Positions 3,229 to 17,290 of a stretch of 64,000 nt of DNA are shown piece by piece. Every line of letters begins with the position of its first letter. Within the stretch, counting starts at the first letter, position 1. Origin of the DNA: Escherichia phage ph0011; sequence record OP557969.1; one strand, written 5' to 3'. The notes under the pieces were generated by a model. The model had not been told where the DNA came from. It did not search any database and was given only the letters and a program-made list of their open reading frames with translations. Position numbers and translations under genes: made by a program.

Positions 3229-3460
3229 GTAGTCATAAGTAATCATATATAAACATTTAAGTAATCATTTATAATCACAGTAGTGAACAGTAGTGAGTAC
3301 TAGAGTACAGGAATGTGCACGTTTAATCAAGAACGTAGCAGTACTGATATGCCACTAAGTAGGCAGAGGAAGTCTGCCGTACTTTGTAGTTTCCAAGCTC
3401 CTTTTCCATTTTGCAAATTACATCAACTGTAATCAAAAGTAATCACATAATGATTAGTAC
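3229..3460. repeat. cluster of short direct repeats (GTAATCA about 5 copies, ACAGTAGTGA x2) and a GGCAGA/TCTGCC hairpin
   Basis: Seen by eye in non-coding sequence. Confidence 0.45.
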
Positions 3461-3489
3461 TGAATTATTACTTTCACCTTAATTTCAAT

Positions 3490-3560
3490 TACCCCTTTAC
3501 CCTTCGGGGTAAATGTATTTTTATCCATTTACCTTTGGGGTAAAATCCCATTACCCCTTG
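3490..3560 (+). other. cluster of consecutive short hairpins (TTACCC-TTCG-GGGTAA and variants)
   Basis: Three tandem GGGGTAA-containing inverted repeats, first with UUCG-type loop. Confidence 0.4.
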
Positions 3561-3744
3561 AGGCTCCAGCAAAAAGTTGGAAAGTACTCCATCGTAAATC
3601 TGGATCGTAAAAATTTTGGAGTACCTATGAAATAAAAGTTGGATCTTCGAAAGTTGAAATTTACGTTGGGACGTTTATGATTTGTGGGATATAATGAGTT
3701 TTGTAGCGATACAGTTTATACGATTTTAGAACTGCATAATGAAA

Positions 3745-5075: not shown

Positions 5076-5438
5076 ATGGCGACTCAAATCAATAAAATTA
5101 TTGCTAACCTGGTTAACTTCCGTGAAGAGATGAAAGGTCTTCCGGCTGAAACGGTAAAAATTCACATTTCAGCTTATCGGGAACTTATTGCAATGTTACC
5201 GCTTAAGCGTGAACAATACGCCGCTACCGTGATGCTTGATGCGATGATCAATAAGATGATCGCCAGTGATTTAACGATGGTTTATCAGTACATGGGCGAA
5301 AATTTCGCGGTGTCTGGTAAGCCAGTACCAGGGATGGCAACTACTGAGGAATTGCACGGTTTAAATTTAAAACAAGATGCATGGGATAATATGCCTCGTT
5401 TCCTGGTATGGGCTGACAGTGGCAAAATTTACAAATAA
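5076..5438 (+). CDS. hypothetical protein (120 aa)
   Basis: Start at MATQINK after hairpin and RBS AAGAGAG; track N-extension covers promoter. Confidence 0.65.
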   Translation: MATQINKIIANLVNFREEMKGLPAETVKIHISAYRELIAMLPLKREQYAATVMLDAMINKMIASDLTMVYQYMGENFAVSGKPVPGMATTEELHGLNLKQDAWDNMPRFLVWADSGKIYK

Positions 5439-5530: not shown

Positions 5531-5770
5531 ATGGCTAAATCAAAAATGTTCTTAGGTCACAAAAACAAAACTCATTGGAATGTAAGCCTTTGGATTAATA
5601 ACGATGAATCATTATACCGGTTGGCCCTGGACTTTATTGCCGCCAATACTAATCGCAATGATGCGGCCCGTCATATGATGTTATTTTTAGAACAGACTGG
5701 ACAAGATAAAACACCGGACGGATTCAAATATAGCACTACTGCGATCCGTGCGGCGATGGTTGGAATGTAA
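5531..5770 (+). CDS. hypothetical protein, paralog of 7569..7808
   Basis: Shared GHKNKTHWNVSLWINN and TPDGFKYSTTAIRAAMVGM; own cassette. Confidence 0.7.
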   Translation: MAKSKMFLGHKNKTHWNVSLWINNDESLYRLALDFIAANTNRNDAARHMMLFLEQTGQDKTPDGFKYSTTAIRAAMVGM

Positions 5771-5860
5771 TAGAATAGAATTTATTTAAAGTACTATCAT
5801 TTTTTGCGATAGTACTTTATAATAGTGTTTTATTCATACACCAACGATAAGGGCAATAGC

Positions 5861-6130: not shown

Positions 6131-6195
6131 GTACTTGCAAACTATGCTTAAAAGCGTATAATACTTTATATCAGGGCGGGGGAATAGTTCCCGCC
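6131..6195 (+). promoter_or_regulatory. early promoter plus 5' leader hairpin cassette
   Basis: AGTACTTGCAA, TATAAT, GCGGGGGAA-tag-TTCCCGCC hairpin. Confidence 0.6.
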
Positions 6196-6214
6196 TATAA
6201 CCGGGAGTAATAAA

Positions 6215-6445
6215 ATGACTAATATGTATATGACTGAAGTTAAAACCGTAAAAGATACTACCACGAATAAAACTACTTACTTACAGCGGATCTGTGGTGT
6301 CTGGCAACGTATCAGCAAATCAAAGTACTTTAAATTAACATCATATGCCAATCGTTCGGATTCATTCAGTACTGAAATAAAAGGTAATAAAGTACACCAA
6401 TACGGCACTTATTATTATTATAGCCTGGACGCGATTGCAGTATAA
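6215..6445 (+). CDS. hypothetical protein (76 aa)
   Basis: ATG directly after hairpin and AGGAGT RBS. Confidence 0.6.
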   Translation: MTNMYMTEVKTVKDTTTNKTTYLQRICGVWQRISKSKYFKLTSYANRSDSFSTEIKGNKVHQYGTYYYYSLDAIAV

Positions 6446-6730
6446 GTAGTTTACAAATCTTTACAATTGCCGGTATTGACTTAAAATGTCAGTACTGGCA
6501 TAATGTATTCATTGGCAGATAAGCCGTGGCCCATAGGGTGCGGAAGTGTATCTATAGAAAAATTAGTTTAGTACAGTTACAATTGTGCACCCTGTGGGTT
6601 AGCTGTTGTCATGGGGTATATTATGCCAGTACTTGATAATGCTGTCAATACTTTTTTACTATTCAGTACTGAAAACTATTTGATAAAAAGTACTTGCAAA
6701 CTATGTTTAAAGGCGTATAATGTTTTACAT

Positions 6731-11551: not shown

Positions 11552-11896
11552 ATGGCTAACATCAATACTATAGCAGCACAAAATATCAACCTGTCTTCTG
11601 TTGAAGTTGTACACATTGCCGCCCGGCGTTGGTTCCAGGCGTCTTATGGTAATACTTATTTCTCTTTAACGGTAGATGTTGAAATCAATGGCGAATTTAT
11701 TGAAGTAGTAAACGTGCCGTTCCAATATGGCTACGGGGATCATTTTGACACTGTAGCAATGGAAGAATTTAGCAAGGTTATTAATATGGAAGGTAAAGAG
11801 TTTTTACGCGGTTCTTATCTTTCCCGTTTTTGCCGTGATAATAATATTACTGTTTATAGTTCTGTTAGTGATGTTAAACGCAAAAAAGATCTTTAA
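11552..11896 (+). CDS. hypothetical protein, paralog of 18128..18451
   Basis: Shared GNTY, YGYG and C-terminal DVKRKKD; RBS AAGAGGAAA. Confidence 0.7.
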   Translation: MANINTIAAQNINLSSVEVVHIAARRWFQASYGNTYFSLTVDVEINGEFIEVVNVPFQYGYGDHFDTVAMEEFSKVINMEGKEFLRGSYLSRFCRDNNITVYSSVSDVKRKKDL

Positions 11897-11976
11897 TTAG
11901 CTTTACTTTATGCAGATACTTTGATATAGTGTCTGCATAGGGGAAAGAAATTAAATCAACTTAAGAGGATAGTAAA

Positions 11977-13459: not shown

Positions 13460-13565
13460 AAAAGTGGTTGACTTCGGTCAGCCATTTTGCTATTATATAT
13501 TCATTGAGAGATAGCTCACTAGCCCACGGGGTGCGGGAGTGTATCTATTATATAAGCATTGAGTA
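13460..13565 (+). repeat. GGGTGCG-core intergenic element with its own TTGACT..TATTATATA promoter
   Basis: Related copies at about 17190, 20460 and 23200. Confidence 0.5.
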
Positions 13566-13678: not shown

Positions 13679-14020
13679 ATGACTATTGCAATTGTACAAT
13701 CTAACTTTGAAAACGAAATCATCGCCCAAGCACTGCGTTTAAATGATGGTCGGGCCGAAATTAATTACGGTTTCAATTCAGGCGGTTGTGAAAAATATCA
13801 GTACTTTATAACTGCTGATGGCGGTGTCCTGGGTATTAATACAGTTATTGTAAACATTCAGAAAATTAATTTCAATGATCCAGACGATAGCCAGTTTTAC
13901 ATTATAGGCGTAGACGTGAACTATGAGGATGACTCACTAACTGATGATTACACTGGCGAGAAGTTAGAAAGTGCATACGGTGAAGATGATTATCAGTCAG
14001 TACCGGAAGATTTTGAATAA
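13679..14020 (+). CDS. hypothetical acidic protein (113 aa)
   Basis: RBS TAAGGA after hairpin; Asp/Glu-rich C-terminus. Confidence 0.65.
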   Translation: MTIAIVQSNFENEIIAQALRLNDGRAEINYGFNSGGCEKYQYFITADGGVLGINTVIVNIQKINFNDPDDSQFYIIGVDVNYEDDSLTDDYTGEKLESAYGEDDYQSVPEDFE

Positions 14021-14143
14021 TATTAAAAAATAGTTTGACAATAGATTATAGTACTGTATAATATTTTACATGAAGGGCAACGGGAAGTTTTTAAAACTTC
14101 CCTATAGGGAGAATAGTTCTCCCACTAACAGAGAGAAAACAAA

Positions 14144-14356
14144 ATGGCTAATATCTGCACTGTACTGAAAAATGCAAAACAAGTTTTATTTTCTGATCAC
14201 GATCATTTAAACAAGGATATTACTGGCGTTCGGAATATCAAAGATGTAAAAAGTGTTATGGGCATCTATTGCAATATGAAACGTGTTGGAACGTTCGGTA
14301 ATAAATTTCTATACCAAGCGGGGGATTACAATTTTACACTGACTATCATTAACTAA
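14144..14356 (+). CDS. hypothetical protein (70 aa)
   Basis: Promoter, double hairpin, RBS AGAGAGA. Confidence 0.6.
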   Translation: MANICTVLKNAKQVLFSDHDHLNKDITGVRNIKDVKSVMGIYCNMKRVGTFGNKFLYQAGDYNFTLTIIN

Positions 14357-14438
14357 AAATATTATCACAGTACTATTGACATAGATTGATAGTACTGGCA
14401 TAATAGATTTTATCAATTACACTACTAAGGAATTAAAA

Positions 14439-14875: not shown

Positions 14876-14981
14876 GATTATAAGCCCATTAGTTAACGCT
14901 GGTGGGCTTTAATCATTTACCCTATACAATGCCAGTACTAAACCGTTTATCTCGTTAGAATGCATTACAGGACGTTTGACA

Positions 14982-15179
14982 ATGATTAGCATGAAATCAG
15001 TACAAAAACAAATAGAAACATTATCAAAAATTAAACGTAAACAGTACTCATTAGAATATAATATCAATGGTAACTATCATCTAATGAAAGAGAATAATTT
15101 TATCGTCATTGATGAATCATTGCAAATTATTAGTATAGTACTGAAAGCATTAATTAATGATAGAAAAAGGTTAAAATAA
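14982..15179 (+). CDS. hypothetical protein (about 65 aa)
   Basis: Track ORF begins at a TTG; first ATG chosen; no clear RBS. Confidence 0.35.
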   Translation: MISMKSVQKQIETLSKIKRKQYSLEYNINGNYHLMKENNFIVIDESLQIISIVLKALINDRKRLK

Positions 15180-15436
15180 TGGCAGTAGGATTCGCGAAAG
15201 ATGGAGCCGAGCAAGATGAGATTAACGCAGTTATTCAAGCCGCCGTTAACCACGCTAGAAAGCAAATTAACGCACAAATAGAATCACTGATACATTGCCT
15301 CGACTGCGGCGATAAAATCCCTGAGAATCGCCGACAGGCTGTTAAGGGTTGTAAGTACTGCATAACTTGCCAGGAGGATCATGATAGTACTTTTAAACGT
15401 CCCCCGCGTAATTGTTGGCATAGATCTATGAGATAA
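15179..15436 (+). CDS. TraR/DksA-family C4 zinc-finger protein
   Basis: C-x2-C-GDKIPENRR ... C-x2-C spacing typical of TraR-like proteins; start overlaps upstream stop. Confidence 0.7.
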   Translation: MAVGFAKDGAEQDEINAVIQAAVNHARKQINAQIESLIHCLDCGDKIPENRRQAVKGCKYCITCQEDHDSTFKRPPRNCWHRSMR

Positions 15437-15500
15437 AAAGTAATTGACAGTACTGAAAGATAGTGTATAATGTTTTATATCTTAACTGAGGATAGAAATC

Positions 15501-15857
15501 ATGGGAATACAACATATCACGCGGACCACTGACAATGGCGAGATCACTGGTTATCAAGTACAGGGCAAAGTAGCACAATTGCAGTACTGGTTTGTTAAAC
15601 GTGGAATCATTGCACCGGATCTTGATTATGACCGTGTAGCGTTTATTGATTCTCTTTATGTTGATCCTGATAGTCGGGGCAATGGTGAAGGTAACGAATT
15701 AATGAATGCCTTTATTGATGCCGCCGATGATTCAGATTGTATCATCTTAGAATGCGATACGGGAGAAGATAACGCCTTTAATCTTAAAGAATGGTACGAA
15801 GGTTTCGGATTCGAGGTATTGATAGATAGTGAATATCCTATCATGATTTTATCATAG
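15501..15857 (+). CDS. probable small GNAT-family acetyltransferase
   Basis: FIDSLYVDPDSRGNGEGNELMNAF resembles GNAT motif A; 118 aa. Confidence 0.4.
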   Translation: MGIQHITRTTDNGEITGYQVQGKVAQLQYWFVKRGIIAPDLDYDRVAFIDSLYVDPDSRGNGEGNELMNAFIDAADDSDCIILECDTGEDNAFNLKEWYEGFGFEVLIDSEYPIMILS

Positions 15858-15936
15858 TACTTGCATTTAGTTTTCAGTACTGTTATAGTACTTGCATCAA
15901 GGGGAAACATCTTCCCCTACTAAGAGGAAATAAAAA

Positions 15937-16125
15937 ATGGAAAACTTATCAAGTATTTTAGTACAAGATGATTTCGGTAATCCTGGAAGTGCTATCATTG
16001 TTCGGGGCAATAAAGCAACGTTTGTTATTGCTGGTGGACCCGTACAGCGTAGCATTAAAAATAATGCTGTTACCATTAATAATGTACGCTATCGCTTAGA
16101 TAAAGAATTAATTCATAAACTGTAA
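15937..16125 (+). CDS. hypothetical protein (62 aa)
   Basis: Promoter, GGGGAAAC..TTCCCC hairpin, RBS AAGAGGAAA. Confidence 0.6.
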   Translation: MENLSSILVQDDFGNPGSAIIVRGNKATFVIAGGPVQRSIKNNAVTINNVRYRLDKELIHKL

Positions 16126-16152: not shown

Positions 16153-16476
16153 ATGTACATTCATACTACTGTCACAAAGGAAGTCCGTTGCCAGTTCGAA
16201 AGTATTCCGGGCGTATGTTTCATCACTGGTACGTTTTCCCCTGGTGATCGTGATAATCCAGTACTGTTACAGTTACGCCATCCATTATGGGATAAAGCAT
16301 TTGATCTGCCGTTGAATGAATTCGCAACCACTGCTGATAAGTACATTAAAAATATTCGCGAGAATGATTGCCTATTCATTAATGCTTTTAGTGATGCCGC
16401 GTTAAGTGAGATCCATGCTGTATTGGTTGCAATCATGGAATCAATGGAGAAAACTATATTCAAACAAGGTGAATAA
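16153..16476 (+). CDS. hypothetical protein (107 aa)
   Basis: RBS AGAGGA upstream. Confidence 0.6.
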   Translation: MYIHTTVTKEVRCQFESIPGVCFITGTFSPGDRDNPVLLQLRHPLWDKAFDLPLNEFATTADKYIKNIRENDCLFINAFSDAALSEIHAVLVAIMESMEKTIFKQGE

Positions 16477-17189: not shown

Positions 17190-17290
17190 AAAGGGATTGA
17201 CTCCGGTCAGTCCCTTTGCTATTATATACGCATAGAAACAAATCAGCCCACAGGGTGCATAAATGTATCTATTGTTTGCTGGTGGCTAGT
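17190..17290 (+). repeat. GGGTGCG-core intergenic element with own promoter
   Basis: GGGATTGACTCCGGTCAGTCCCTTTGCTATTATATA then AGCCCACAGGGTGCAT; near-identical 5' part at 20460 and 23200. Confidence 0.5.

Follow-up and report, generated by a model that had tools for sequence, protein, structure and literature searches.

Two independent genes in a long direct terminal repeat

We analysed a 64,000-nucleotide stretch of the genome of Escherichia phage ph0011 (record OP557969.1; hereafter the window, meaning this whole stretch) and focused on two small neighboring genes within it. Both open reading frames (ORFs) were recovered on the plus strand exactly where the initial annotation had placed them, at 15179–15436 (85 amino acids, aa) and 15501–15857 (118 aa). 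The first encodes a C4 zinc-finger protein of the DksA/TraR family, within a YbiI-like phage clade, and the second a minimal N-acetyltransferase with the GNAT fold, which represents as a solo protein a GNAT family of phages and polyvalent proteins. Profile and structure searches supported both folds. The features described below are on the plus strand unless indicated otherwise.

Neither ORF is a chance reading frame, and both are under strong purifying selection. Nei–Gojobori counts with four related phages gave pN/pS values of 0.05–0.08 for the zinc-finger gene (pS up to 0.40) and 0.00–0.06 for the GNAT gene (pS up to 0.39). For the latter, two comparisons yielded seven synonymous differences and no non-synonymous one. 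Across 17 phages that diverge by 3–4% at the DNA level, the GNAT protein does not vary (100% identity). Antisense ORFs on the minus strand over the two genes (15077–15277, 15235–15363, and 15656–15910) were not considered further, as the pattern of substitutions agrees with the frames on the plus strand.

Several relatives' records already label the two genes as 'DksA-like zinc-finger protein' and 'acetyltransferase'. The same annotations are public for phage 121Q and its relatives, both proteins belong to well-known families, and neither assignment would surprise a specialist. The genome paper of the related phage Sharanji mentions neither gene (PMC11895373). What we add for the zinc-finger protein is its YbiI-type affiliation with the missing DxxDxA motif, a frozen phage-specific tail, and a truncated 55-aa derivative. 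For the GNAT, we add its link to the polyvalent-protein family, together with a demonstration that the adjacency of the two genes is incidental.

The source phage is an Asteriusvirus, i.e., a 121Q/PBECO4-like jumbo coliphage. The DNA of the region is 94–97% identical to the closest Asteriusvirus records (e.g., SP27 and vB_EcoM_E9.1) and 91% identical to 121Q, and the matching Asteriusvirus records are 347–386 kb long. The region containing both genes is present twice in many of these records, and in vB_Ec-M-J it lies inside an annotated direct terminal repeat of 21,525 bp; a repeat of 20.7 kb was obtained with PhageTerm for Sharanji (PMC11895373). Mapped onto the window, the vB_Ec-M-J repeat spans approximately 3358–24700, with both genes in mid-repeat. 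This stretch holds about 50 small plus-strand genes, almost all of them 'hypothetical' and separated by spacers of 60–90 bp, and 39 near-consensus sigma-70 promoters on the plus strand versus 6 on the minus strand. Such a layout of promoters and genes is the signature of reading by unmodified host RNA polymerase (RNAP), from which we infer the timing. The initial annotation had considered both genes compatible with early reprogramming of the host, and an early setting driven by host RNAP is indeed plausible, given their location in the direct terminal repeat among 39 coding-strand promoters of this kind.

The GNAT gene carries its own expression signals. A perfect sigma-70 consensus promoter (TTGACA-16 nt-TATAAT, 12/12 matches; 15444–15471) sits in the 64-bp gap between the two genes, and a Shine-Dalgarno ribosome-binding site, GAGGA, was read from the sequence at 15488–15492. 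On the right-hand side, the cassette is bounded by the next promoter-like site (TTGCAT-17 nt-TATAGT; 15861–15889) together with a hairpin in the 5′ untranslated region that follows (GGGGAA-acatc-TTCCCC; 15901–15917). For the comparison of cassettes, we used 15437–15936 of the window, 2369–2450 of locus L006, and 2434–2933 of locus L011.

The two genes are distributed differently among phages. By tblastn, the zinc-finger protein was detected at ≥90% identity in 33 phage records and the GNAT in only 23 Asteriusvirus-type records. When searched against 50,697 phage records (E 1e-3), the GNAT was found only in Asteriusvirus-type phages, Shigella phage SF1-1, and Klebsiella phage 05F01. Salmonella phage SD-1_S14 has no GNAT gene; its zinc-finger gene directly precedes the homologue of the window ORF at 15937–16125, and at the junction the −35 element of the promoter at 15444 is joined to the −10 element and hairpin of window 15884–15917. 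Similarity to the window is likewise lost at about 15454 in Sharanji, G17, PBECO4, slurp01, and BF17; Sharanji and PBECO4 are among the phages that retain the zinc-finger gene but have no GNAT. Conversely, the unrelated SF1-1 (146 kb), for which the annotation notes suggest Phapecoctavirus-like relatives, lacks the zinc-finger gene but has the GNAT cassette, at 88.5% DNA identity over window 15434–15923 and 95.8% protein identity. At least five other cassettes are shared with SF1-1 in a different order (window 5085–5438, 5555–5775, 6150–6446, 11601–11904, and 14130–14358), and a more distant GNAT homologue (47%) occurs in the Stephanstirmvirinae phage 05F01.

The GNAT gene thus behaves as a mobile promoter-gene cassette that is cleanly absent from about one-third of the genus, with the junction inside a promoter. 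The zinc-finger and GNAT genes are independent of each other and their adjacency is incidental: the GNAT gene has its own perfect promoter and each gene occurs without the other, so the initial pairing of the two as neighbors carries no functional weight. An operon or functional pair was ruled out by the consensus promoter between them, by approximately 10 of the 33 zinc-finger-keeping genus members that lack the GNAT, and by the occurrence of each gene alone elsewhere.

By analogy only, this arrangement resembles the PeSL cassettes of T4-type phages, in which small genes of unknown function are individually flanked by a conserved early promoter and a stem-loop (PMC2839356, PMC4122927). Gain and loss junctions likewise fall inside promoters, and the cassettes are reordered in another phage. 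Unlike the PeSL cassettes, those described here belong to a different phage group, have AGTACT-rich promoters, and lie in a 21-kb terminal repeat. In the picture we favor, the two genes are separate early-gene cassettes of the long direct terminal repeat, and both are probably transcribed by the host sigma-70 RNAP soon after DNA entry.

Upstream of the zinc-finger gene, most relatives have approximately 330 bp of additional DNA (3270–3612 of the 121Q locus L002) with two promoter-like sites and one small ORF (121Q gene 293), located between two copies of an 11-bp direct repeat, GTTAAAATAAT. One copy and no insert are found in the window (15170–15180), UE-S1, phAPEC6, G17, and Sharanji, as judged from the sequence versus 121Q and from one- versus two-piece megablast matches. 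Without the insert, the zinc-finger gene is left with no dedicated consensus promoter, and its translation becomes coupled to that of the upstream ORF. The latter, at 14982–15179, encodes 65 aa from an ATG at 14982 (the ORF-listing program starts it from TTG at 14976), matches PHROG 36844 (5e-45, aligned from residue 3), and corresponds to a 198-bp coding sequence in relatives; its stop codon overlaps the start of the zinc-finger gene (TAATG).

Families and folds of the two proteins

The zinc-finger protein (MAVGFAKDGAEQDEINAVIQAAVNHARKQINAQIESLIHCLDCGDKIPENRRQAVKGCKYCITCQEDHDSTFKRPPRNCWHRSMR) has the C-x2-C...IPENRR...C-x2-C architecture that had been recognized initially. Its zinc core (15296–15370) consists of C40-x2-C43, I47-P-E-N-R51-R52, and C61-x2-C64, and the gap of 17 residues between the CxxC pairs is the same as in TraR (C37/C40/C58/C61; alignment A1). 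C40, C43, C61, C64, I47, R51, and R52 are invariant in 31 homologues, and R51/R52 align with R48/R49 of TraR, which contact the rim helices and beta'Si3 of RNAP (PMC9239242). The protein matched Pfam PF01258 (zf-dskA_traR; E = 1.1e-11, 45 bits versus a gathering cut-off of 24.9) and PHROG 54 ('DksA-like zinc-finger protein'; 4.9e-19). An AlphaFold2 (AF2) model based on the 31 homologues contains a helix (residues 6–32), the zinc domain, a second helix (62–71), and an unstructured tail (pLDDT 75, pTM 0.42). This three-element layout agrees with the division of TraR into N-helix, globular domain, and C-helix (PMC6970531). The predicted C-helix differs in sequence from that of TraR, which contacts beta Si1 of RNAP, and is followed by an extra tail of 14 residues.

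The initial annotation had placed the protein in the TraR family. Membership in the DksA/TraR family stands, but the protein is YbiI-like rather than TraR-like: in a PDB sequence search, E. coli YbiI (2KGO) was matched at 1.6e-12, aligned from Met1, versus about 9e-6 for TraR from RNAP complexes (5W1S, 6N57), and the DxxDxA motif is absent. The Foldseek ranking of the model was YbiI 2KGO, TraR 6N57, 5W1S, and then DksA, so that YbiI is the best match in both sequence and fold. The two proteins share 38% identity in alignment A1 and are of the same length class (85 versus 88 aa), and identity to other bacterial YbiI-type proteins is 42–52%.

Residues 1–12 (15179–15214) form an N-terminal motif, M-A-x-G-[FWY]-[AG]-[KR]-[DE]-G-[AG]-x-Q (alignments A1 and A2), which corresponds to MAxGxAxDxA..Q, or MAxG[WF]AxDxAxxxQI in fuller form, of YbiI. 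M1, A2, G4, G9, and Q12 do not vary among the phage and bacterial members, and A6, K7, and A10 are conserved at ≥90%. The motif is thus common to the phage clade and bacterial YbiI, and it occupies the place of the DxxDxA tip of TraR. Four acidic residues and one basic residue were read in residues 1–20.

The C-terminal tail, FKRPPRNCWHRSMR (residues 72–85; 15392–15433; alignment A1), sets the phage proteins apart from YbiI. Its clade consensus is FKRxPRNCWHRSMR, of which RNCWHRSMR is invariant while overall identity falls to 62–74%, whereas bacterial YbiI has GYNRRGSKDSQLR at this position (NRRGSKDSQLR in our feature list). No regular structure was predicted for the tail by AF2 (pLDDT 52–66). 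Also unlike YbiI, the protein scores under the equivalog cut-off and is phage-borne, in an early-gene array.

The clade is common to the jumbo Asteriusvirus and many T4-like phages, which is where the 62–74% identity applies. In T4-like phages (e.g., Moon, RZ, fHe-Yen9-01, Klebsiella EI, and Yersinia P8), the 85-aa protein is encoded among the small early genes between tk and nrdC, where no GNAT gene is close by. A shorter version was observed in the Mosigvirus Escherichia phage DCP548, where the second CxxC, the C-helix, and the invariant tail are all that a 55-aa ORF (MLYDYTGKSEDGVLELLPESAEDDDMVVIYCVGCQSMHDEIFKREPRNCWHRSMR; 514–681 of locus L010) retains of the zinc-finger protein; its N-terminus is acidic and unrelated. 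This ORF is conserved at ≥90% in about 34 phage records, and many other T4-like phages match only its residues 1–45. Its CxxC and the C-x-H of the tail could form a different metal site.

The GNAT motif-A-like segment reported for the second protein was likewise found, as VDPDSRGNGEGNELMNAF at residues 54–71. Within it, the pyrophosphate loop R59-G-N-G62-E-G64 (15675–15692; alignments A3 and A4) fits the R/Q-x-x-G-x-G/A pattern. Pfam matches above the cut-offs were obtained for PF00583 (4.1e-9, 37.2 bits versus 20.7), PF13508 (33.5 versus 27), and PF13673 (26.3 versus 23.6); the PF00583 match covers only the C-terminal half of the profile (positions 53–116), i.e., motifs A–B. In the AF2 model (pLDDT 87, pTM 0.81), the core beta4-alpha3-beta5-alpha4-beta6-beta7 is present, and the motif A loop lies between a strand (45–54) and a helix (63–74). 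All matches listed by Foldseek in the PDB were GNATs, as were nearly all those in the viral structure library, which were uncharacterized and small.

Relatives of this GNAT were revealed only by exhaustive searching. A word-indexed search found 2 proteins, essentially the Asteriusvirus protein itself, and 18 with a profile. Searching 1.84 billion representatives exhaustively with HMMER yielded 290 relatives, many of which are 118–140 aa long and align over the full length. In an alignment of 30 sequences (A3), G62, G64, W98, and Y99 are invariant, R59 is conserved at ≥90%, and D86 and E89 are nearly invariant; R59, G62, and G64 are all invariant in alignment A4. In the two relatives with readable contigs, the GNAT gene has small unannotated ORFs as neighbors, in arrays of the kind typical of phages. 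A truncated pseudogene was ruled out, given that 118 aa is within the family norm and pN/pS is near zero. No specific subfamily emerged: all NCBIfam matches are far under the cut-offs, the best being a weak match to rimI, and the PDB profile and fold matches are generic only.

Some relatives are domains of much larger proteins. P0122 (2284 aa) has the GNAT domain at 578–693 along with ART-PolyVal and NUDIX domains (E = 9e-10 to the window protein), and P0075 has it at 41–156 along with a PARP-type ADP-ribosyltransferase and ParB_N (E = 1e-12); other large proteins join the same domain to DUF5661 or an amidoligase domain. Two GNAT families have been described in phage polyvalent proteins, one of which is typically adjacent to an ADP-ribosyltransferase (ART) domain, is RimI-like, and has known solo versions (PMC5512222, Iyer et al. 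2017). The GNAT of the window resembles these in its full-length homology (36–42% identity, E 1e-9 to 1e-12) to domains located beside ART-PolyVal plus NUDIX or PARP plus ParB_N, a family match made by domain architecture and not against the authors' own sequences. Unlike them, it is a free-standing protein of 118 aa with its own promoter rather than part of a virion-packaged multidomain protein. This mini-GNAT offers, as a protein in its own right, a handy example of an effector domain that is elsewhere embedded in very large polyvalent proteins, and natural phage variants with and without the gene exist.

Possible roles in early infection

Taking both proteins together, we lean, with modest confidence, toward a reading in which the zinc-finger protein would bias initiation by host RNAP via the secondary channel and its rim, and the GNAT would acetylate a host protein early in infection. 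The rival explanations considered below, one for the zinc-finger protein and three for the GNAT, were each judged singly, and their likelihoods are not meant to be summed with that of the combined reading.

For the zinc-finger protein, the helix would be inserted into the host RNAP secondary channel with the zinc domain placed on the rim, as in TraR and lambda Orf73. It may then shift initiation away from ribosomal RNA and ribosomal protein promoters, freeing resources for the phage. Shared with TraR and Orf73 are PF01258, the small size (85 versus 73 aa), the order of N-helix, C4 zinc domain, and C-helix, the CxxC-17-CxxC spacing, I-P-E-x-R-R with its Arg pair, an acidic N-terminal half, and carriage by proteobacterial phages. 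Phage TraR homologues bound RNAP in five of five cases tested by the Gourse laboratory (PMC9239242). As for YbiI, its over-expression is reported to rescue the amino-acid auxotrophy of a delta-dksA strain (PMC2613031, data not shown there), which is the sole functional statement on YbiI that we found.

The differences from TraR are nonetheless considerable. Identity is only about 26–29%, there is no DxxDxA, three extra N-terminal residues with conserved glycines are present, and the C-helix is followed by the invariant basic tail of 14 residues. The host elements also differ: the present clade comes from virulent phages of the jumbo and T4-like types, and the tested TraR homologues from temperate phages or a plasmid. 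With the DxxDxA tip absent and YbiI closer than TraR, RNAP binding by this YbiI-like phage clade is predicted from homology only.

Several points weigh against the combined reading. The DxxDxA motif at the N-helix tip is required for the activity of TraR and lambda Orf73, and phage TraR homologues in which it is imperfect are less active (PMC9239242). No D-x-x-D-x-A was found in residues 1–32 of the zinc-finger protein; the aligned tip is A-K-D8-G-A-E11-Q-D13, with D8 as the only acidic residue conserved in the clade. Some DksA/TraR zinc-finger proteins of intermediate length do not act on RNAP (PMC9239242). The protein falls below the cut-offs of the NCBIfam YbiI equivalog (NF008243/PRK11019; 82.8 bits versus 96, over residues 1–72 only), of the TraR subfamily TIGR02419 (52.8 versus 59.7), and of TraR NF010268 (31.2 versus 108). 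Its AF2 model is only moderate, and no consensus promoter is dedicated to the gene in ph0011. On the GNAT side, the gene is dispensable within the genus, the canonical beta1-alpha1-alpha2 arm is missing and replaced by a beta-hairpin (3–10, 13–21) and a single helix (25–33), and the best profile-level PDB match is the aminoglycoside acetyltransferase AAC(3)-XI (3e-7).

Some of these observations could indicate that the zinc-finger protein acts outside the secondary channel, through its N-terminus and tail, with a different target or mode of action (e.g., a nucleic acid, some other host protein, or another surface of RNAP). The absence of DxxDxA is accompanied by a different N-terminal motif kept from bacteria to phages, and RNCWHRSMR is frozen within an otherwise diverging protein. 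Further in line with such a target are the 55-aa Mosigvirus ORF, which in its ~34 records keeps only the second CxxC, helix, and tail, and the DksA/TraR-type proteins that are inactive on RNAP (PMC9239242). The uncharacterized YbiI lies in an iron-related chromosomal neighborhood, and a relation to iron metabolism has been suggested for it (PMC2613031). Set against this, the protein still has the RR pair and the general architecture of TraR, rescue of delta-dksA by YbiI has been reported, and no alternative domain or partner was detected. We regard action outside the channel as possible but rather unlikely.

A further idea, to which we assign a low likelihood, is that the working part in the virulent-phage clade is an invariant C-terminal module (the second CxxC, the short helix, and FKRxPRNCWHRSMR) instead of the secondary-channel tip, and that this module would engage a target or an RNAP contact unused by any characterized DksA/TraR protein. 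It would explain the loss of DxxDxA, the tail frozen across jumbo and T4-like phages, and the persistence of the 55-aa version. TraR-type proteins are a proven way for temperate phages and plasmids to reprogram host RNAP without ppGpp. To our knowledge, those characterized so far include neither a protein of a virulent phage nor one of the YbiI type. This clade would show whether the mechanism tolerates the loss of DxxDxA and what the added tail does.

In the GNAT, the acetyl-CoA-binding core is intact, including the beta4-alpha3 loop RGNGEG and the WY of alpha4. Early in infection, the enzyme may act on a host protein by acetylating one of its amino groups, as suggested by the recurrence of its family beside ADP-ribosyltransferases in polyvalent proteins and by the weak best match to RimI-like protein acetyltransferases. 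The ART-adjacent polyvalent GNATs are predicted to modify proteins on account of their place in a RimI-like clade (PMC5512222), and modification of host proteins, RNAP among them, has already been predicted for the GNATs of jumbo phages in a comparative study (PMC7824862). Rac of phiKMV-like phages, a GNAT that subverts host transcription, has been proposed as a model for those of jumbo phages (PMC7552054, PMC7824862). The window protein differs from Rac in host and genomic position, Rac adjoining phage RNAP and structural genes, and homology to Rac/LUZ19 gp28 was not detectable, with no phiKMV-like phage among the tblastn matches in the 50,697 phage records (E 1e-3).

The missing arm is the acceptor-binding alpha1-alpha2, so the fold does not reveal the substrate class. 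The substrate could be a small molecule or tRNA (a polyamine, an aminoglycoside-like compound, an amino acid, or an aminoacyl-tRNA as for the TacT/AtaT-type toxins), and AAC(3)-XI as the best PDB profile match, the matches to phosphinothricin and puromycin acetyltransferases, and weak NCBIfam matches to AAC(6') and ArsN point in this direction. We find this improbable, as the matches to small-molecule acetyltransferases span only the generic motifs A and B and are far under the family cut-offs, no antitoxin-like neighbor was found, and the early-gene context and ADP-ribosyltransferase fusions favor macromolecular targets. In particular, the pairing typical of TacT, AtaT, and ItaT was not observed: neighboring ORFs lack RHH/DUF1778 domains, and no toxin family appeared among the NCBIfam or PADLOC matches. 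The toxin role considered in the initial annotation thus finds no support.

An anti-defence role, also raised initially, would make the GNAT an AcrVA5-like enzyme that acetylates and inactivates a host immunity protein. AcrVA5, a 92-aa anti-CRISPR that acetylates Cas12a, is likewise a minimal GNAT of a mobile element. It ranks with the best structural matches and comes first under target-length normalization (TM 0.77 normalized to AcrVA5, rmsd 2.9 Å). The variability of the cassette in the genus and its exchange with an unrelated phage are typical of counter-defence genes, and the polyvalent-protein relatives are predicted conflict effectors (PMC5512222). Identity to AcrVA5 is only 16–17%, however, and dozens of ordinary GNATs score equally, with similar Foldseek E-values, so the proposal draws on a fold similarity common to many other GNATs. 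There is no sign of a CRISPR or other defence target, and neither of the two proteins was matched by PADLOC, which for the GNAT is weak evidence, as the library covers defence systems and not anti-defence proteins. Overall, we consider an anti-defence role unlikely.

The minimal architecture (118 aa, no alpha1-alpha2), the presence of PanZ structures among the fold matches, and the dispensability of the gene would also be compatible with a catalytically inert protein, either a PanZ-like acetyl-CoA-binding regulator or a decaying passenger gene. This appears very unlikely in view of the strong purifying selection, with only synonymous differences (seven in two comparisons), and of the motif A glycines and alpha4 WY that are invariant across the deep family.

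Other features of the terminal-repeat stretch

No Rfam families or tRNAs were found in the window. Between the intergenic stretches of 3358–24700, internal BLAST matches revealed repeated intergenic modules, and in vB_Ec-M-J the genes past the end of the repeat are tightly packed and overlapping.

The palindrome AGTACT is the most over-represented hexamer of the whole window (248 occurrences versus approximately 21 expected from base composition) and is densest at 1–24700, with 134 versus 7 expected in the terminal-repeat stretch. CAGTAC and GTACTG are the next most over-represented hexamers. Enrichment of other palindromic hexamers does not exceed 3.4-fold, and several that are GC-rich do not occur at all. 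AGTACT is part of many promoters (AGTACTGTATAAT, AGTACTTGCA) and also occurs inside ORFs, e.g., at 15354, 15386, and 15583; it may be bound by a phage protein, signal recombination, or serve as a target of modification.

Two genes downstream of the GNAT, a 107-aa ORF (16153–16476) matched Pfam DUF7247 above threshold (E = 6e-8) and PHROG 3566; 121Q lacks this gene at the corresponding position. A 113-aa ORF at 13679–14020 corresponds to EcMJ_024 of vB_Ec-M-J (342 bp), which is labelled 'DNA ligase' there and hypothetical in the other records inspected. The label looks like an annotation error, the ORF being far too short for a ligase.

Lastly, two near-identical hairpins with 12-bp stems (AAAG..GGTTGACTYCGGTCAG..CTTT) were detected at 13461–13488 and 17190–17217, each followed by GCTATTATAT. 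The TTGACT within each stem is also the −35 element of a promoter-like site, at 13468 and 17197, respectively, and the hairpins are thus composite terminator-promoter elements between cassettes.

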